Positions 10,129 through 62,374 of a stretch of 64,000 nucleotides of DNA are shown here, piece after piece. Source of the DNA: Octopus vulgaris (Eukaryota). The notes under the pieces were generated by a model. It had not been told where the DNA came from, ran no database searches, and saw only the letters and a list, made by a program, of their open reading frames with translations. Position numbers and translations under genes: made by a program. The stretch covers positions 13,578,001-13,642,000 of the forward strand of contig OX597826.1 of the NCBI GenBank assembly GCA_951406725.2, in the 5' to 3' direction. The stretch's first letter is position 1; the number at the start of each line of letters is the position of its first letter.

Positions 10129-10166
10129 TCTTTAACGTTTCGAGCCTACGCTCTTCAACAGAAAGA
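10129..10166 (-). ncRNA. Minimal type I hammerhead-like motif, 3' pseudo-LTR (variant core CUGUUGA)
   Basis: UCUUU-CUGUUGA-A-GAGC(GUAG)GCUC-GAAA-CG-UU-AAAGA. Stem I UCUUU/AAAGA, loopless palindromic stem III. Confidence 0.7.
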
Positions 10167-10658
10167 TACACACAGAGAGAAAAACACAGAAAGAAGGAGA
10201 GAAAAAAAATGCGTGCAGTAGCTAACGAATCAACATGGCGATCTGATTTCGGCCAGAGGTCAAAGATCAAACATGAGACGCGAGAGCGAAATAAGGGGAG
10301 ATAATAGGGTTGAGGGACCAGCTAAAAGTGCGTGGGAGGGGTCTGGATGTGTGTATGTATAGGGTTGGTGTATGTATTAGTATGTATAAGGGTGTGTGTG
10401 TGTGTGTGTGTGTGTGTATGAGAGAGTATTAGTGCGTAGGATTGGTCTGGACGTGCGTATGTATGGGGTTGGTGTATGTATTAGTATGTATTAGTATGTA
10501 TTAGTACGTATTGGTATGTATAGGTGTGTGTGTGTGTGTGTGAGAGAGTATAAGTGCGTATGCGGGGTCTGGACGTGTGTATGTATAGGGTTGGTGTAAG
10601 TATTAGTATGTACTAGTATGTATTAGTACGTATTAGTATGTATTAGTTGGTGTGTGTA

Positions 10659-13334
10659 TTAGTATGGCACATCATATGTGATGTGATGTGTAAAGTCATG
10701 TGGTGTAGTGAGGAGAAGAGGGGGAGGGGAGAAGAGGGGGAGAAGGGGAGGGGAAGAAGAGGGGGAGGGGATGGTGAAGAGGAGAGGATGGGGAGAAGGA
10801 AGGGGAGGAGAGGGATGAAGGAGGAAAGAGGGAGAGGGGGAGAGAGAGGGAGAGGGGGAGAGAGGGGAGAGAGAAGGGGAGAGAGGGAGTGAGGGAGCAG
10901 AGGGAAGGGGAAGAGGGAGGGAGAAAGAGGGAAGAAGGGAAGAAGGGAAGGGGAGTAGGGGTGAAAGGATGAAGGACTGAAGAGGTAGTGGTCGGGGGGA
11001 GAAAGGATAGGTGAGGAGGGGGAGAGGGGGGTTAGATGAGGAGGGGGGAGAGTTGAGACCAAATGGCGTATAAGAGCGAAGAGAGAAGATTAATTCCTGT
11101 TCACGGCGCAAACGGGAATCCGGATGGCCTCTGTGTAAGGACAAACCGAACACAGATAGGTGTTGCAAGGAGTGACCGGTGGAGCGGAAATGGCGTGAGA
11201 CCGGTGTGTCGTTCGCAAGGTGGATGTCACGAAGGTGTTCCGCGAACCGGTCAGCCAAGCGGCGTCCCGTTTGTCCGATGTACAAGGAATTGCAGAGAGA
11301 GCAAGAGATGCAATAGATAATATTGCTGGAGGTGCAGGTGAAGGAGTGGATGATGGGATAGGGTCGATGGTGGGTGCTAGTGAGGCGGGTGGTGTTGGAG
11401 AGGTAAGGGCAAGTGCGGCAACGTGGGCGGAAGCAGGGGAACGAGCCGGGTTGGGAGGTAGGGTCAGGGAAGGAGCTATGGACCAAAAGGTCTCGAAGGT
11501 TGTGGGCTCGTTTGAAAGAGGGGAGGGGTCGGTTAGGGAAGAGGTGTGAAGTGGACGGGTCGGACTGGAGATGACGGAAAGCTCGAAGAATGGTGCGTTG
11601 GAGACGTAGGGTCGTGGGGTGGTAAGTGAGGGGAAAAGGGAGGCGGGAGACTACAGGGCGGGTTCGGGGAGAGAGAGCAGATACACGGTCCACGGACCGT
11701 GCTCTGGCAAGGGCGGTGTGGATAGTGGTGAGGGGGTATCCACGTAGGGTGAAGTGGTGAGCCATACGTTGAGACTGAGTCTCAAAGTCATGGTCGTCAC
11801 TACAGAGCCTACGTAGACGGAGGAATTGGGAATAGGGGATGGAAAGCTTGGTGTGTTCTGGGTGGGAGGAAGAGAAGTTGAGGTATGAGTGTGAGTCTGT
11901 GTGTTTGTAGTGAATGGAGGTGGTAAGAGTGGAGTCAAGAATGCTAACCGAAATGTCGAGGAAGGAGACAGAGGTGTTGGAGATAGTGGAAGTGAAGTGG
12001 AGGGCTGGATGGAAAGATTGGACGAAAGAGAGGAAGGAATCTAGATGTTCGCGGGAGAGTGAGGTGGCACCGATAATGTCGTCAATATAACGACCATATA
12101 GTTCAGGAGTGGGACCAGTGAAAGTAGAGAATATTTGGGCCTCAACATAGCCAACGAACAGGTTCGCATAGTTGGGGCCCATTCGCGTTCCCATGGCCAC
12201 TCCCGAGACCTGATGGTAGAACTCGCCCGCGAACGAGAAGCAGTTCAGAGTAAGGACAAGTTCGGCCAGACGAATGAGTGTGGAGGTGTCAGGTACAGGG
12301 TTAGAGCGGAGGTCAAGAAAGTGTCGAAGGGCCTGCAGTCCTTCGTGGTGAGGGATAACAGTATAGAGGCTTTGGATGTCCATAGTAAAAAGGATTTTGG
12401 AGGAGCCGGGAGGAAAGGAGAAAGAGTTGAAAAGCCGGAGAGCATGGTTGGTATCGTGGATGTGGGAGGGAAGAGATGCCACTAGGGGGGCAAGGACACG
12501 GTCGAGGTATTTAGAGATGAGCTCCGTGGGGCAGTTACAGGCGGAGACGATGGGGCGGCCAGGGTTGTTGGGTTTGTGGATTTTGGGGAGGAAGTAAATG
12601 GTGGGGGTACGTGGGGTTCGCACAATTAGGTTGGATGCGGTGCGGGGGAGACGGGAGGACGAGATGAGGTCTTGGACAGTAGAGGATACCGTCTGTTGGT
12701 AGCTACGTGTGGGGTTAGAGGGCAGAGGGGAATAGAAGGAGGTGTCATTGAGTTGGCGGAAAGCCTCGGCCCTATAGAGGTCCGCGCGCCACACCACTAC
12801 AGCTCCACCCTTGTCAGCCGGTTTGATGATAATGTCAGCGCGCCGTTGGAGGGAACGAAGAGCCAAGAGCTCAGCCGGGGAGATGTTGAGGCGGCGTTGG
12901 CGCCTGGAGAAGTTGAACCGCTCCAATGCACGCTGACAAGCGCCCGCGAAAAGATCCACTGCTAGGATCTGGCCAGGGGCAGGCGTCCACGGGGATGGTC
13001 GGCGGCCCAGGCCAGTGAAGCAGTCGTCCTCTTCGTTGGGTGTGGGTGGCGAGTCGTGGTAATGCGCACCCAACCGGACACGGCGTACAAAGCTGTGGAC
13101 ATCAACTCGCGTCTGGAATTCCTTACAGGATGGAGTGAGGGGGATGAAACGCAGACCCCTACCAAGGACGGAGCGTTCAGCCGCAGAGAGGGGAAGATCG
13201 GGGGGAATGGTAACAACAGACGGAAGTGGAGAAGGGGTAGGTGGAATAGAAGTGGGAGGGGTGGTAGGTCTCGTGGAGGTCTGAGGGGGAGGGATTGGGG
13301 AGGTGTGTGGGGGTGGTTGGGCGGGGCAGTAGGG
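10659..13334 (-). CDS. Penelope-type reverse transcriptase + GIY-YIG endonuclease (frame open to TAA at 13335-13337; track start 13073 is an internal TTG)
   Basis: Motifs KPADKGGAVVVW, FLPKIHK, GRPIVS, MDIQSLYT, GVAMGTRMGP, RYIDD, SQFLRLRRLCS. PCxxxxCxxC knuckle. IIYCISC...LYIGQT...RFAEH GIY-YIG. Upstream in-frame VVTIPPDLPLSAAERSVLGRGLRFIP. Confidence 0.95.
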   Translation of the reverse strand, partial: PYCPAQPPPHTSPIPPPQTSTRPTTPPTSIPPTPSPLPSVVTIPPDLPLSAAERSVLGRGLRFIPLTPSCKEFQTRVDVHSFVRRVRLGAHYHDSPPTPNEEDDCFTGLGRRPSPWTPAPGQILAVDLFAGACQRALERFNFSRRQRRLNISPAELLALRSLQRRADIIIKPADKGGAVVVWRADLYRAEAFRQLNDTSFYSPLPSNPTRSYQQTVSSTVQDLISSSRLPRTASNLIVRTPRTPTIYFLPKIHKPNNPGRPIVSACNCPTELISKYLDRVLAPLVASLPSHIHDTNHALRLFNSFSFPPGSSKILFTMDIQSLYTVIPHHEGLQALRHFLDLRSNPVPDTSTLIRLAELVLTLNCFSFAGEFYHQVSGVAMGTRMGPNYANLFVGYVEAQIFSTFTGPTPELYGRYIDDIIGATSLSREHLDSFLSFVQSFHPALHFTSTISNTSVSFLDISVSILDSTLTTSIHYKHTDSHSYLNFSSSHPEHTKLSIPYSQFLRLRRLCSDDHDFETQSQRMAHHFTLRGYPLTTIHTALARARSVDRVSALSPRTRPVVSRLPFPLTYHPTTLRLQRTILRAFRHLQSDPSTSHLFPNRPLPSFKRAHNLRDLLVHSSFPDPTSQPGSFPCFRPRCRTCPYLSNTTRLTSTHHRPYPIIHSFTCTSSNIIYCISCSLCNSLYIGQTGRRLADRFAEHLRDIHLANDTPVSRHFRSTGHSLQHLSVFGLSLHRGHPDSRLRREQELIFSLRSYTPFGLNSPPSSSNPPLPLLTYPFSPRPLPLQSFILSPLLPFPSSLLPSFSLPLPLPSAPSLPLSPSLSPLSPSPSLSPSPSFLLHPSPPLPSPHPLLFTIPSPSSSPPLLPLFSPPPLLLTTPHDFTHHITYDVPY

Positions 13335-14665: not shown

Positions 14666-14703
14666 TCTTTAACGTTTCGAGCCTACGCTCTTCAACAGAA
14701 AGA
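14666..14703 (-). ncRNA. Minimal type I hammerhead-like motif, 5' pseudo-LTR (identical copy)
   Basis: Same sequence as 10129-10166, offset 4537 bp. Confidence 0.7.
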
Positions 14704-16037
14704 TACACACAGAGAGAAAACACAGAAAGAAGGAGAGAAAAAAAATGCGTGCAGTAGCTAACGAATCAACATGGCGATCTGATTTCGGCCAGAGGTCAAA
14801 GATCAAACATGAGACGCGAGAGCGAAATAAGGGGAGATAATAGGGTTGAGGGACCAGCTAAAAGTGCGTGGGAGGGGTCTGGATGTGTGTATGTATAGGG
14901 TTGGTGTATGTATTAGTATGTATAAGGGTGTGTGTGTGTGTGTGTGTGTGTGTATGAGAGAGTATTAGTGCGTAGGATTGGTCTGGACGTGCGTATGTAT
15001 GGGGTTGGTGTATGTATTAGTATGTATTAGTATGTATTAGTACGTATTGGTATGTATAGGTGTGTGTGTGTGTGTGTGAGAGAGTATAAGTGCGTATGCG
15101 GGGTCTGGACGTGTGTATGTATAGGGTTGGTGTAAGTATTAGTATGTACTAGTATGTATTAGTACGTATTAGTATGTATTAGTTGGTGTGTGTATTAGTA
15201 TGGCACATCATATGTGATGTGATGTGTAAAGTCATGTGGTGTAGTGAGGAGAAGAGGGGGAGGGGAGAAGAGGGGGAGAAGGGGAGGGGAAGAAGAGGGG
15301 GAGGGGATGGTGAAGAGGAGAGGATGGGGAGAAGGAAGGGGAGGAGAGGGATGAAGGAGGAAAGAGGGAGAGGGGGAGAGAGAGGGAGAGGAGGAGAGAG
15401 AAGGGGAGAGAGGGGAGAGAGGGAGTGAGGGAGCAGAGGGAAGGGGAAGAGGGAGGGAGAAAGAGGGAAGAAGGAGGGAAGAAGGGAAGGGGAGTAGGGG
15501 TGAAAGGATGAAGGACTGAAGAGGTAGTGGTCGGGGGAGAAAGGATAGGTGAGGAGGGGGGAGAGGGGGGTTAGATGAGGAGGGGGGAGAGTTGAGACCA
15601 AATGGCGTATAAGAGCGAAGAGAGAAGATTAATTCCTGTTCACGGCGCAAACGGGAATCCGGATGGCCTCTGTGTAAGGACAAACCGAACACAGATAGGT
15701 GTTGCAAGGAGTGACCGGTGGAGCGGAAATGGCGTGAGACCGGTGTGTCGTTCGCAAGGTGGATGTCACGAAGGTGTTCCGCGAACCGGTCAGCCAAGCG
15801 GCGTCCCGTTTGAACTACACGTGTTTCAGAATTGGAAGATTACAATATATATACATATACACAACTGTATACCTATATATGTATACATATATAAATACAT
15901 ATATGCAATCATTAGATTTACAATTATTCCAACACATCTTCAGGTTCTATTTCAAAATATTATATATCTAATTTTACATCCCATTAAATATAAGCAATAC
16001 AATGAAGCATTAAAGATTAAAAATTACGAATTAGAAA

Positions 16038-29976: not shown

Positions 29977-30084
<108 letters not shown>

Positions 30085-30230
30085 GACATAGTATATATTT
30101 AAATACATAGAGAATCCACTTATAGGGATTCCACGTGCTAGAAAGAACAGCTAAGTTCTATAACCACCAAAAATTGGGAATAAGATTCGACAGGAATAAA
30201 TTTGGAAATTAAAAACATTTACCATCTAGA

Positions 30231-30308
30231 TTCCTGGACCAATTAGTTTCTAATCTTCTTTTAGCGAGTCATAGAGAGCTCACAAGGGCTGATTTTCGTT
30301 AGCAAGAA
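30231..30308 (-). ncRNA. Hammerhead-like motif with CUAACGA core (inverted copy)
   Basis: Reverse-complement copy of 30531-30608 with a few substitutions. Confidence 0.55.
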
Positions 30309-30530
30309 CCAACTTATCTACACGAGACAAAACAGGCTACCTGTCCCGTGTACGTACAACCTAACTTTTCAAATTTTCTTCGCAGACGCAATAAACCGCC
30401 AACTTTTAACCGAAAATTATCCAAAAATCTGCAGTATTCAATCATATCAAAGGGAAATGGAATTTAATTAAAGTTAAAAATATTCAATCAAGAAACATAT
30501 AGCATATTTTGTCTCGTGTAGATAGGTTGG

Positions 30531-30608
30531 TTCCTGCTAACGAAGATCAGCCCTTGTGAGCTCTCTATGACTCGCTAAAAGAAGATTAGAAACCAATTGG
30601 TCCAGGAA
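30531..30608 (+). ncRNA. Hammerhead-like motif with CUAACGA core
   Basis: UUCCUG-CUAACGA-[45 nt]-GAAA-CCAAUUGG-UC-CAGGAA. Perfect 6-bp stem I, palindromic stem III, GUC site. Confidence 0.6.
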
Positions 30609-30887
30609 TCTAGATGGTAAATGTTTTTAATTTCCAAATTTATTCCTGTCGAATTTTATCCCCAATTTTTTTTGTGGTTATAGAACTTAGCTGTTCTTTC
30701 TAGCGCATAGAATCCCTATAAGTGGATTCTCTATGTATTTAAATATACACTGTATCGTATGACTAATATATAGTCTTTTTTTACTAAAATCTTTTACGCG
30801 TTGGACCACTGGAAAAGTAATTTTTGATTGAATGCTTTTAACTTTAATTAAATTCCATTTCCCATTGATATGATATATATATACACT

Positions 30888-30941
<54 letters not shown>

Positions 30942-30947
<6 letters not shown>

Positions 30948-31372
30948 CAATTAAGGACAACTTCTTAATAAGGAAAACTTAACAAGAAATTATCTGGTAG
31001 ATAGCGTGAAAGACCTCATAAGAGAAAACATTTCGAAAATAATTCTTTCTTATAACATATTAATTTATATATAGAGGGCATTATTATACATACATGCCAC
31101 ACGCTAAGAGGGACAAAATTAGTCATTTCTACCAAAAATTTTACTAATCCCACCGAATGCAATTTTTCAAAGTAAGACATTTAAAAATATGGACTTGTAT
31201 CACCTGTGATTTCATACCTCTGTATTCATCAGCAAGCCTGGACGTATCATAAATGTCTTACTTTGAAAAATTGCATTCGGTGGGATTAGTAAAATTTTTG
31301 GTAGAAATGACTAATTTTGTCCCTCTTAGCGTGTGGCATGTATGTATAATAATGCCCTCTATATATAAATTA
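30942..31372 (-). mobile_element. 3'-end fragment of a probable Penelope-like element with 5' fold-back
   Basis: Apparently perfect ~123-bp inverted repeat (31061-31183 / 31250-31372) with a hammerhead in the spacer. (TA)n flanks. Confidence 0.7.
31192..31238 (-). ncRNA. Canonical type I hammerhead ribozyme
   Basis: GGCUUG-CUGAUGA-AUAC(AGAG)GUAU-GAAA-UCAC(AG)GUGA-UA-CAAGUC. All three stems and the full core are present. Confidence 0.88.
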
Positions 31373-31389
31373 TATATATATATATATAT

Positions 31390-31614
31390 TGATAGAAATG
31401 GCAAGACAACAAAAGAATGATGGAGACCTCGATATTATGTAACTAGAGGAATTTATCTGTAAATGTAATATGTGACAATTATTCAGTAGCCATGATAAAA
31501 CTCCAAGTTTCGGATGTCGGGGCGGAACCCACGCCGACACCTCTTCAGTTATCTGGTCATAAAAAAAATGCTATGAAAATGACCGTTAAACAGTCCTTTG
31601 TTTAACGGTCATTT
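31390..31614 (-). mobile_element. 3'-end fragment of a probable Penelope-like element
   Basis: Hammerhead 31494-31553. Tail ends in (TA)n. 16-bp perfect hairpin 31577-31614 at the 5' junction. Confidence 0.6.
31494..31553 (-). ncRNA. Type I hammerhead ribozyme
   Basis: GAUAA-CUGAAGA-GGUGUCGG...CCGACAUCC-GAAAC(UUGGA)GUU-UUAUC. Confidence 0.8.
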
Positions 31615-31616
31615 AT

Positions 31617-31689
<73 letters not shown>

Positions 31690-32362
31690 AAGAGAGAGAC
31701 TTTTGTATACATAAACATGAAATGTACTTATATCTGCATTTCTGTGCGTACATTTTGGACACTTATACGTGATTGTGAAATTTCACGTATATGTTACGAA
31801 CATATTCTTACAAGTATCTTAATGTCGAATTTGTAATATTCTTCTTAATAATCCTCTGAATAACCCTAAACTTTAACTTTATACAATATAGCACTATTTT
31901 TTAAAATATTTAACTATAGTACGACATGATAAGATTTCCCCTGTGTCATTATCAATGGTCCGCTAGTGGCCAGCCCCTTAATTGTCAGTTAACATCTTGA
32001 TTTAAGTTTTTCCTTTACCAAATCTCATGATATTGCTTCTAATAAATCTTGATTTTTTTATGACTATACCCACTATGATTTCTGTCGACTCCCTCAGCCC
32101 TACCCCTAACAGACACTGCCGCTTGTCCTCTCGGCCTTAGATATACAAGGATTTGATAAAACTAGTCTATAAATTATAACTGACCCCATAAAACAGTGAC
32201 AAGCAAGATCTGTAACAAATCTTTCTTCCTGATACCTTAGTAACTTCTAAGTTGAAGTGAAGGCAGCATGTTCTTTGTCTATCTCCTTACCTTCTTGGAG
32301 ATTTCAGGTAAAATTATACTAATGTATCCATCTGTTTTAATTTAATTAAATTCTATGTCTTT

Positions 32363-32450
32363 GTGCAGCTGAGGATTGCTCTGCATTTAAATTGATGTAA
32401 TGTTTGCATTGTTCAATTAAATGTAGTTGCGTGAAACGATCGTACTGCAT
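32363..32450 (+). ncRNA. Type I hammerhead ribozyme with long helix II
   Basis: GUGCAG-CUGAGGA-[57-nt hairpin incl. CUGCAUUUAA/UUAAAUGUAG]-GAAAC-GAUC-GUA-CUGCAU. Confidence 0.82.
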
Positions 32451-33195
32451 TACTTCTGGATATCCTTGTTGCTTATTTTGATTTTAACCACCTTATTTTG
32501 AAATTGTATGGATAATACCGAACTAAATGCTGGTACCTCAACTTAAGTACCATATTCATCTGAATCTATGTATATATGGCCCGAGGCTATAATCGAAGGC
32601 ACTTACTCGAAGTGACACGCAGAAGGATTTAACCAGGAACCCTACTGTTCAGAAGCAAACTTCTTGTCACACAACCACGCCTTTCCGTGCGCATGTATGT
32701 GCGCATGCATATAATTACATAACACACACATACTTATACACATACACGCACCCACACACGCACCTACACGCACCCCCACACACACATATATGAATATGTA
32801 TACATAAATATACATGTCTATATAAATAAATAAAAATATATCATATACACACGCTACATAGATACATACAAAGGCGCTTTCATGCTTATATGTATATATA
32901 TTTATATAGACCTATGAGGGCGAGAAAGAAAGAAAGAAAGAAAGACAGAAAGGAAGAAAGAAAGAAAGAGTGATGTACGAATAAATACGAAATTAATCTC
33001 TTGGTATGATGGAGACAAAAGAGCGTAAGGAGAGAACCATTCATGTGTGGTCTAAGAGTTTGTTTACGTCTTTCGGTTCCCTTTTTTGCTTGTAAACTTC
33101 GGCTGTATATTCAAATGTATATATATATATTTGGTTGTTTGTTTATGCACTCGTGAGTATGAGTGTATATATGTATATGTATGTATATATGTATG

Positions 33196-33816: not shown

Positions 33817-34745
33817 AGGCGGTGAGCTGGCAGAAATGTTAGCACGCCGGGCGAAATGCGTTGCCATATTTCGTCTGCCGTTACGTTCTGAGTTCAAATT
33901 CCGCCGAGATCGACTTTGCCTTTCATCCTTTCGGGGTCGATTAAATAAGTACCAGTTACGCACTGGGGTCGATGTAATCGACTTAATCCGTTTATCTGTC
34001 CTTGCTTATCCTCTCTGTGTTTAGCCCCTTGTGGGTAGTAAAGAAATAGGTATTTCGTCTGCCGCTACGTTCTGACTTCAAATTCCGCCGAGGTCGACTT
34101 TGCCTTTCATCTTTTCGGGGTCGATTAAATAAGTACCAGTTACGCACTGGGGTCGATATAATCGACTTAATCCGTTTATCTGTCCTTGTTTATCCTCTCT
34201 GTGTTTAGCCCCTTGTGGGTAGTAAAGAAATAGGTATTTCGTCTGCCGCTACGTTCTGACTTCAAATTCCGCCGAGGTCGACTTTGCCTTTCATCCTTTC
34301 GGGGTCGATTAAATAAGTACCAGTTACGCACTGGGGTCGATATAATCGACTTAATCCGTTTATCTGTCCTTGTTTATCCTCTCTGTGTTTAGCTCCTTGT
34401 GGGTAGTAAAGAAATAGGTATTTCGTCTGCCGCTACGTTCTGACTTCAAATTCCGCCGAGGTCGACTTTGCCTTTCATCCTTTCGGGGTCGATTAAATAA
34501 GTACCAGTTACGCACTGGGGTCGATATAATCGACTTAATCCGTTTATCTGTCCTTGTTTATCCTCTCTGTGTTTAGCCCCTTGTGTGTAATAAAGAAATA
34601 GGTATTTCGTCCGGCTTCAAGTTCTGAGTTAAAATTTGCCCGTCATCCTTTCGGGGATGATTAAGTAGGGGTTGGGTACAGGGATCGATGTAATCGACTT
34701 ATCTCCTCCCACGAAATTGTTGGCGTTCTGCCAAAATTTGAAATC
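33817..34745 (+). mobile_element. tRNA-derived SINE (Meta-like central domain) tandem array, 184-bp period
   Basis: Head ggcggtgagctggcagaa with B-box-like gttcaaattc. Junctions at 34049, 34233, 34417, 34601. Confidence 0.9.
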
Positions 34746-42398: not shown

Positions 42399-42995
42399 GG
42401 CGGCGAGTTGGCAGAATCGTTAGCATGCCGAGCGAAATGCTTAGTGGTATTTCGTCTGTCGTTACGTTCTGAGTTCAAATTCCGCCGAGGTCGACTTTGC
42501 CTTTCATCCTTTCGGCGTCGATAAATTAAGTACCAGTTACACACTCGGGTCGATGTAATCGACTTAATCCCTTTGTTTGTCCTTGTTTGTCCTCTCTGTG
42601 ATTAGCCCCTTGTGGGTAGTAAAGAAACAGGTATTTCGTCTGCCGCTACGTTCTGAGTTCAAATTCCGCCGAGGTTGACTTTGCCTTTCATCCTTTCGAG
42701 GTCGATAAATTAAGTACCTGTTACACACTGGGGTCGATATAATCGACTTAATCCCTTTGTCTGTCCTTGTTTGTTCTCTCTGTGTTTAGCCTCTTCTGGG
42801 TAGTAAAGAAATAGGTATTTCGTCTGGCGTTATGTTCTGAGTTCAAATTCCGCCGAGGTTGACTTTGCCTTTCATCCTTTCGGGGTCAATAAATTAAGTA
42901 CCAGTTACGCACTGGGGTCGATGTAATCGACTTAATCCCCTTCTCTGTCCTTGTTTGTCCCCTCTCTGTTTATTGTGGGCAATAAAGAAATAAGA
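42399..42995 (+). mobile_element. Same SINE, 3-unit array
   Basis: Junctions at 42630 and 42814. Confidence 0.9.
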
Positions 42996-47099: not shown

Positions 47100-47820
47100 G
47101 TTGGCGTGCTGCCAGAAACGTTACGTTCTGAGTTCAAATTCCGCCGAGGTTGACTTTGCCTTTCATCCTTTCGAGGTCGATAAATTAAGTACCAGTTACG
47201 CACTGGGGTCAATATATTCGACTTAATCCCTCTGTCCTTGTTTATCCTCTCTGTGTTTAGCCCCTTGCGGGTAGTAAAGAAATAGGTATTTCGTCCGTCT
47301 TTACGTTCTGAGTTCAAATTCCGCCGAGGTCGACTTTGCCTTTCATCCTTTCGGGGTCGATAAATTAAGTACCAGTTACGCACTGGGGCCAATATAATCG
47401 ACTTAATCCCTCTGTCCTTGTTTGTCCTCTCTGTGTTTAGCCCCTTGCGGGTAGTAAAGAAATAGGTATTTCGTCCGTCTTTACATTCTGAGTTCAAATT
47501 CCGCCGAGGTCGACTTTGCCTTTCATCCTTTCGGGGTCGATAAATTAAGTACCAGTTACGCACTGGGGTCAATATAATCGACTTAATCCCTCTGTCCTTG
47601 TTTGTCCTCTCTGTGTTTAGCCCCTTGTGGGTAGTAAAGAAATAGGTATTTCGTCTGCCGCTACGTTCTGAGTTCAAATTCCGCCGAGGTCGAATTTGCC
47701 TTTCATCCTTTCGGGGATCGATAAATTAAGTACCAGTTGCGTACCAGTCAATCTAATCGACTGGCCCCCTCCCCCAAAATTTCAGGCCTTGTGCCTATAG
47801 TAGATAGGATTATTATTATT
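47100..47820 (+). mobile_element. Same SINE, 4-unit array (180-bp period), last unit with alternative tail
   Basis: Junctions at 47285, 47465, 47645. Followed by further SINE copies 47830-48170. Confidence 0.9.
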
Positions 47821-60646: not shown

Positions 60647-61245
60647 GGTGGCGAGCTGGCAGAAACGTTAGCATGCCGGGCGAAATGCGTAGCCGTATTT
60701 CGTCTGCCGCTACATTCTGAGCTCAAATTCCACCGAGGTCGACTTTGCCTTTCATCCTTTGAGGGTCGATAAATTAAGTACCAGTTACGCACTGGGGTCG
60801 ATATAATCGACTTAATACGTTTGTCTGTCCTTGTTTGTCCTCTCTGTGTTTAGCCCCTTATGGGTAATAAAGAAATAGGTATTTCGTCTGTCGTTACGTT
60901 CTGAGTTCAAATTCCGCCGAGGTCGACTTTGCCTTTCATCCTTTGAGGGTCGATAAATTAAGTACCAGTTACGCACTGGGGTCGATGTAATCGACTTAAT
61001 ACATTTGTCTGTCCTTGTTTGTCCTCTCTGTGTTTAGCCCCTTGTGGGTAATAAAGAAATAGGTATTTCGTCTGTCGTTACGTTCCGAGTTCAAATTCCG
61101 CCGAGGTCGACTTTGCCTTTCATCCTTTGAGGGTCGATAAATTAAGTACCAGTTACGCACTGGGGTCGATGTAATCGACTTAATCTGTTTGTCTGTCCTT
61201 GTTTGTTCTGTCTGTGCTTAGCCCCTTGTGGGTAATAAAGAAATA
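60647..61245 (+). mobile_element. Same SINE, 3-unit array
   Basis: Junctions at 60878 and 61062. Confidence 0.9.
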
Positions 61246-62374
61246 TGTATGTGTGAACGTATGCATGTATGCATGTACCTGTGATTGCTTTTTAATCATT
61301 CTCAATACATGCTTATAATAGAAATGTGTGAAGACTTGTTAGTATATCCGTGAGTTTTAACAAATAGTGAAAGCCTATACCTAAAATATACAATTGTGCA
61401 CGTTTATTTAGTAATTAGCCGTCACGCTTTCAGCAAGGATAGTGAAAACTATGCTTCACTGATTAAATAAAACTATGTCCAAAACATAGAACGAGTTATT
61501 TCCCTTATTGAAAACAATAGTAGTTACGGACTATTGGTTTTAATCTTACGATGGACACAAGCGAATATTTGTTGGCATATGCCATTTATTGCCTTGCATG
61601 CTTTACAACACACAATAAACCTTGGCTTTAGGGCACCGTAGCCATCCAGGAGGGTTGCAAAGCAAGAAGTAGCATAAAATGTGGAAACAGGAGGACATCC
61701 ATGAGTCATGACTGGATGCGGTCCGCCTCCCTTCCACAGAGTATAAAGAGTTAAGGGTCGAAACACTTGTTTGGAAATGAGATTTCTTTGATGATCTTCT
61801 GCAGTTCATCGCTCCCTAGAGTTTGTTCCTATTATGAGTGTCAGGTCGGAACAAATTCTTTACTTTGGTTCTCTATGTTTTCACATATGCAGTAGTTGAT
61901 GAAAGTTTTCTTTGTGTGTGTGTATATATGAATGTGAGTGTGAAAGAGGGCATAATCAAACATGTACCCAAAGTACTCGCAACTGCGCATGTACCGAAGC
62001 ACCTTTAAATGAAATTAGCTTGTTAATTCTATTTTCCCTGCTAAATTGCTTGTAGCAATAAAAATAAAAAAGTAAGCGAAAACAAAACGTAATATAATAA
62101 AATACTTGAAAAATTAGATTTAAGTGCTTAATTTCAGATTGAGAGATTAGCTATCGCTTTACTTTATAATTGGTGACACGGTCGACAGTTAAGTGATAGA
62201 TAAGTGGTGGGTATCCCGACTCTACGACTGTATTGTATGCTATCTCAGATTGGTGCTAATGTAATTTTGCGTTGGAGATCTAAGCAGCTCTTTTACATAG
62301 ATAGATAGATGCATCCACATACACACACACACACACATACAAACATGCACCCCCACATACTCACACTCACACAA

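Follow-up and report, generated by a model that had tools for sequence, protein, structure and literature searches.

Penelope-like elements of the Hydra clade carry hammerhead ribozymes, and almost all of them insert in (TA)n (Craig 2021, PMC8557442). The supplement of that paper includes an element from Octopus bimaculoides, Hydra-1_Obim, with a (TA)n preference and a hammerhead. One of two inverted Penelope ends can bear a tail of 30-40 bp (Arkhipova 2013, PMC3846280; PMC8557442), which has been traced in vitro to two internal reverse-transcription start sites (Frangieh 2024, PMC11167929). With the anole element used in that work, the start sites were equal between the strands and hammerhead cleavage was unnecessary. 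Minimal hammerheads of metazoan Penelope-like elements (PLEs) have been described as opposite-strand pairs 100-700 bp apart (Cervera and de la Pena 2014, PMC4209133). A second kind of hammerhead carrier, the animal non-LTR retrozymes (Cervera and de la Pena 2020, PMC7229834), was recently argued to consist of non-autonomous Penelope derivatives (Li et al. 2026, bioRxiv 10.64898/2026.07.22.740005). Penelope-like elements have been proposed as the movers of retrozymes from co-occurrence and phylogeny. A 2026 repeat annotation of Octopus vulgaris reports recently active Penelope families and mentions neither hammerheads nor Hydra in its main text (PMC13282606). Our literature search on octopus hammerheads and Penelope, with subscription journals and Repbase mostly out of its scope, returned only Craig 2021 as relevant, and a search on Penelope twin priming with an inverted arm and a tail returned one unrelated review.

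Here we analysed a cluster of five hammerhead folds in a stretch of 64,000 nucleotides of Octopus vulgaris DNA, called the window throughout. We read the cluster, with a probability of roughly 85%, as four 5'-truncated insertions, three of which are chained by (TA)n. Two belong to the Hydra clade (families C and D) and two are units without an open reading frame (families A and B) that were likely moved in trans by Hydra enzymes. In itself the cluster is everyday debris of transposons, of a kind already described, made of new families of a known clade and of a known non-autonomous kind. As far as our literature search reached, two things are new compared with print: ORF-less units that bear the Hydra footprint, and a near-strict rule that pairs one short end with one long end.

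Hammerhead folds and the state of their cores

A descriptor scan recovered all five type I hammerheads that a sequence-only reading of the window had proposed: hammerhead 1 at 30229-30310 (minus strand), hammerhead 2 at 30529-30610 (plus), hammerhead 3 at 31192-31238 (minus), hammerhead 4 at 31494-31553 (minus) and hammerhead 5 at 32363-32450 (plus). Dinucleotide shuffles of 30085-32575 (n=1,000) gave no fold in 993 cases and one fold in seven, as compared to five in the real sequence. The core pattern had been widened to let in folds 1 and 2, and the canonical core alone recovers three of the five. No further folds were found in the rest of the window with a stricter descriptor. Rfam returned no matches across the whole window at the gathering score, and hammerhead families were absent among the 26 window matches at E up to 10, a silence that would be expected of divergent Penelope-type motifs. 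When folded as monomers with 15-20 nt of flank, all five hammerheads lay 2.4-7.5 kcal/mol above the minimum-energy fold.

The type I core (CUGANGA / GAAA / UH) with stems I-III is present in folds 3, 4 and 5, which all have intact cores. Folds 1 and 2 both read CUAACGA, a change of G5 to A. As this change served as an inactivating control in published work (PMC4027429), hammerheads 1 and 2 are predicted from their cores to be probably inactive. The change is common to both arms of insertion A and was thus probably already present in the template; most other A copies retain G5. Among the sampled genomic copies the core was intact in 15/26 for A, 26/26 for B, 25/29 for C and 26/30 for D. The sequence-only reading had proposed self-cleaving motifs on both strands if the locus is transcribed; the three intact cores span both strands, and two of the five folds are probably dead.

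Intact cores on both strands are also what would be seen if the locus were a selected module, used by the host to cleave transcripts of either strand. We consider this very improbable, since both A cores carry the inactivating change, the window copies of C and D (93% and 92%) show the same divergence from their families as is seen in other copies, and insertion fully explains the layout. We infer that the hammerheads at this locus are passengers of the insertions.

Layout of the four insertions

The cluster had been described as a stack of four families, and this number was right. The number of insertions is four and not five, because folds 1 and 2 lie in mirror arms of a single insertion (176 nt at 94% and 93 nt at 92%, inverted repeat 30081-30760). 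Fold 3 lies inside a second inverted repeat, 123 nt long and perfect, which the earlier description did not include.

Insertion A is flanked on its left by its target, a (TA)21 tract (30042..30083). Its left arm (30068..30495, minus strand) holds the end of a previous unit, hammerhead 1 with a palindromic stem III, and a tail to the short end at +170, which merges into the TA tract. The right arm (30495..30872, plus) carries hammerhead 2, identical to hammerhead 1 at 79/82 nt, and a tail to the long end at +270. A (TA)n tract (30873..30940) then links the long ends of A and B, tail to tail. The long arm of B (30941..31254, minus) is a piece of a 459-nt ORF-less tandem unit, with a tail that reaches +257 and with hammerhead 3, whose helices are of canonical size (6 bp in stem I and 4 bp in each of stems II and III). 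The inverted arm of B (31250..31377, plus) covers +15 to +141, the short end, and is identical to the long arm. The short end of B is linked by a short (TA)n (31378..31388) to C at its long end. C (31389..31592, minus) is a 5'-truncated pLTR of a Hydra-clade element that consists of hammerhead 4 and 110 nt of 5' leader. D (31830..32577, plus) sits 240 nt from C and is the 5'-truncated end of a second Hydra-type element, with a 530-nt piece of the 3' region, hammerhead 5, in which stem II is long and stem III palindromic, and a tail to the long end.

Insertions A, B and C are thus chained via pure (TA)n. The arms of B are 100% identical and those of A 93.6% (6.4% difference), which makes B the youngest insertion, likely the last to enter, between A and C. 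As had been proposed, the tails run to TA-rich or (TA)n sequence, at +170/+270 from the cut site in A, +257 and +141 in B, +110 in C and +122 in D; the sequence reached is (TA)n in A, B and C, but only a small TA-rich patch in D.

The 5' junction of C (31575-31612) contains a 16-bp hairpin, an inverted repeat of about -97 to -80, followed by (GA)n. It represents either a second arm reduced to a stub or a fold-back of local origin. The fragment of about 100 nt behind D (32578-32682) is found at 71-78% in many unrelated loci and is probably a SINE piece.

Families C and D have the features of Hydra-clade elements

All four pieces are dispersed genomic repeats. First-look searches of the 2.8-Gb genome gave 1,671 candidates for A, 2,021 for B, 3,904 for C and 5,573 for D, which are not copy numbers. 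For each family 40 candidates were scored and the best 30 of these 40 were used as copies, a sample that is biased to similar copies, most of which show neutral decay.

Long C copies continue upstream into an ORF for a GIY-YIG endonuclease. A search with this endonuclease returned pieces of a reverse transcriptase (RT)-endonuclease, and hammerhead C lay downstream in 15 of the 30 best-scored loci. In near-complete C copies a hammerhead is followed by a leader, an ORF with its ATG at about +210, a 3' region and another hammerhead, each unit measuring about 3.1 kb, and the whole hammerhead-leader-ORF-hammerhead unit is present at locus L336. This layout identifies the C piece in the window as a pLTR, in which a hammerhead is joined to the opening 110 nt of the following copy's leader. 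The tail of C was said to be non-coding, and it is, being the 5' leader ahead of the ATG. When D was walked upstream, the ORF was absent within the first 2.6 kb and was reached on a further walk. D has a 2.7-kb AT-rich 3' region with decayed internal duplications, then an ORF homologous to that of C; the entire layout is found at locus L324, together with an inverted short arm at the 5' end. The decayed repeats inside the 3' region of D (L181-L185, L324) are about 840 nt long, and an Asn-rich insert precedes the endonuclease linker.

Both C and D have a single ORF with RT and, at the C-terminus, GIY-YIG. The protein has 11 full-length homologues at 34-42%. In Pfam the GIY-YIG match (E 0.029) was below the cut-off, and RT families gave no match with the natural ORF pieces and three homologues. 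The motifs RWK and DKT are present in C, and D has DKT, with RWI in the single copy read. Both have a CxCX5C linker and CxxC and CxH around the endonuclease, and CCHH is absent from the translations as read by eye. With a hammerhead in the pLTR, insertion in (TA)n and a tandem or inverted layout, C and D show the defining features of the Hydra clade. We read them as ends of autonomous Hydra-clade Penelope-like elements, with the published alignment compared by eye.

Shared with the described Hydra clade, Hydra-1_Obim included, are a C-terminal GIY-YIG, RWK and DKT, CxCX5C, CxxC and CxH, a pLTR hammerhead, a (TA)n preference and an inverted 5'-truncated arm, and by eye the C protein resembles Hydra-1_Obim. 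Compared by eye, the hammerhead of Hydra-1_Obim is unlike those of A-D, which are other families. Unlike published Hydra elements, D has its 2.7-kb 3' region with duplications, an Asn-rich linker and a total length of about 6 kb. The sequence-only reading had, as one of two alternatives, taken the pieces for 3' ends of uncharacterised Penelope-like families. C and D are indeed ends of such elements, but of the already described Hydra kind, and the pieces consist of a hammerhead and the start of the leader of the next copy. The four families had also been called unrelated, with no flanking sequence in common; C and D are related via their proteins.

Near-identical C copies are clustered on contig C17 (L124, L126, L131, L135, L136, L142 and L147), where they likely spread through segmental duplication.

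Insertion footprint

The ends of a given family fall at two set distances from its cut site: about +170/+270 in A, +141/+264 in B, +48/+112 in C and +42/+122 in D, and +42/+112 in an intact Hydra family of 727 aa from the same genome. The (TA)n preference suggested by the window was borne out in the genome, with (TA)4 within 10 nt at 145 of 236 distinct ends versus 4.6% in the background. Some microsatellite lay within 22 nt at 203 of the 236 ends, as compared to 13% of sampled positions. D ends less often in (TA)n (30/74).

Two-armed insertions paired one short end with one long end in 36 of 38 cases, in a count limited to insertions with a microsatellite behind both ends; the dropped pairs include L023, which is long/near-long and against the rule. 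Selection for the long end played no part in the A and B queries, and in these two families 24 of 25 pairs were short and long; in the 727-aa family all four two-armed insertions (4/4) were. At L094, L153 and L168 the arms abut in spite of an offset of over 1 kb between the two 5' starts, which argues that the second arm was primed independently. Fold-back copying as the source of the inverted arm is excluded by the same abutting arms.

This footprint resembles the published Penelope tail and inverted pLTR, with two internal RT start sites and a tail at one inverted end (PMC3846280, PMC11167929). The tail in print is optional or 'often' at one end, whereas here it is near-strict, and it is also longer, 64-123 nt versus 30-40 in described Hydra-clade elements (PMC8557442). 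Moreover, the tail of C is a non-coding leader, unlike the published Penelope tail, which is an ORF start. The hammerheads share with those of PMC4209133 an extra base before stem II, a long stem II and, in A and D, a palindromic stem III, as well as the many families per genome and the opposite-strand pairs 100-700 bp apart. Stem II of A and D is longer still than in that source, with 45-57 nt between the core boxes.

We propose that a Hydra RT-endonuclease would cut both strands within (TA)n, and that two cDNAs would be primed at two internal leader sites downstream of the hammerhead, one per DNA end. If both cDNAs stopped early and were joined head to head, one short-ended and one long-ended arm would result. 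Priming 40-270 nt behind the hammerhead would explain why even the shortest stubs retain it. The chaining of three insertions by (TA)n would likely follow from each of them cutting in (TA)n and leaving TA repeats for the next.

Among four runs covered in the form of contigs, one loose end in run X3 looks like a template-switch adapter.

Families A and B are ORF-less tandem units

Family B is a 459-nt unit in head-to-tail repeats, and consecutive hammerhead-bearing units were seen in L190, L200 and others. The period of A, which was seen as partial tandems, is 468-508 nt. The longest ATG frame is 23 aa in A and 67 aa in B, and neither family has similarity to the C and D monomers. The sampled B copies are 99.3% alike. 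Relatives of B at 73-82% with their own hammerheads were observed at L203, L322 and L337, the last being the 10 kb before the window, so the ORF-less lineage is older than B itself.

In these traits A and B are like the non-LTR retrozymes (PMC7229834): both are short tandem units, rich in AT and devoid of an ORF, in which every unit has one type I hammerhead, and the hammerhead of B has canonical helix sizes. The alternative that the sequence-only reading had allowed, short non-autonomous ribozyme-bearing elements, fits both of them. The units are 459-508 nt long, and no arm among the examined loci holds more than about two and a third of them. What sets A and B apart is that they bear the full Hydra insertion footprint, of which the available text of PMC7229834 and bioRxiv 10.64898/2026.07.22.740005 holds no description. 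This footprint suggests that A and B were likely moved in trans by Hydra enzymes. The partner is putative, as no autonomous element sharing their sequence was found in 26 A and 45 B places or among 30 loci of other Hydra families.

A and B could instead be truncated pLTRs of unsampled autonomous Hydra families, with the tandems arising by template jumps. The sampling leaves room for such families, with the best 30 of about 2,000 candidates used per A or B search and a genome rich in Hydra families (150 of 2,290 candidates scored). Yet we consider this origin unlikely. Among 69 distinct B long-end contexts, 35 ran on into the same unit again, 32 into TA-type repeats, two were an internal variant and none ran into an ORF. 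The junction that closes the unit was identical in all 35 run-on contexts (35/35), one variant locus excepted, and was therefore inherited in the template. Also, C and D reached their ORF in one to three walks, but 45 distinct B and 26 distinct A places never did, nor was a Hydra protein match joined to A or B in any of them; at L199 an unrelated Hydra protein match lies 4 kb off. No sequence match was found between A or B and 30 loci of other Hydra families, a comparison that covered families other than those of 717 and 718 aa.

Movement in trans remains the preferred reading of A and B. For B we go one step further and lean, with some reserve, to a 459-nt retrozyme, existing as a circular or tandem RNA, that is currently or was recently active and is moved by Hydra enzymes, its footprint reflecting an obligatory asymmetry whereby each of the two cut DNA ends has a different, fixed priming site on the RNA. 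If this is true, the insertions would be direct, insertion-level evidence for the proposed partnership between retrozymes and Penelope-like elements.

Intact Hydra families in the same genome

Among the Hydra candidates of the genome, of which 150 of 2,290 were scored, are several young families whose open frames of 717-727 aa have stayed intact across dozens of nearly identical copies (L374-L400; e.g. C1:57210894-57219004). Some of these copies form arrays of about 2,585 nt, arranged head to tail. Over 20 copies the 727-aa family is 98.8% alike, and it has a very short hammerhead 176 nt ahead of its ATG. It has no detectable shared sequence with A or B, and is a candidate partner for them. 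If B is active and moved by Hydra enzymes, this intact family, of the same age and in the same genome, would be a ready test partner for it.

The cluster is an entry to two questions, which enzymes move animal retrozymes, and how the Penelope tail and inverted arm originate. With the young B family, the intact Hydra families and the short/long rule, both are testable in one genome.

Genomic background of the cluster

Sixty evenly spaced 10-kb stretches (600 kb) contained nine descriptor hammerheads, and shuffles of them 0-1. Scaled to the genome, this extrapolates to about 42,000 hammerheads, which is a floor, since the short hammerhead of one intact family is largely missed by the descriptor and the leader of that family occurs in 5 of the 60 stretches.

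With a background this dense and underestimated, the cluster might be a chance pile-up in a hammerhead-rich genome, with shared targeting absent, the more so as the window was chosen for looking unusual. At the low estimate, 0.09 such 2.5-kb windows would be expected genome-wide. We hold chance to be improbable, because A, B and C are joined by (TA)n alone and because family members elsewhere show the same tendency: the flanks of 108 family loci contained 14 hammerheads of other families in 276 kb, 3.4-fold over the background with the same descriptor (p=0.0035). The 47 descriptor matches outside A-D fell into 25 clusters. The enrichment points to the cluster as the upper tail of shared targeting. 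The term hot-spot, used in the sequence-only reading, has to be set against a genome with, by extrapolation, tens of thousands of such motifs.

Other repeats in the window

A repeat family with a unit of 180-184 nt forms arrays of 3-4 copies at 33867-34611, 42446-42972, 47121-47738 and 60695-61250. A duplicated block with the same tandem repeats is located at 10158-10955 and 14695-15481, 4.5 kb apart, and possibly represents the terminal repeats of another element.
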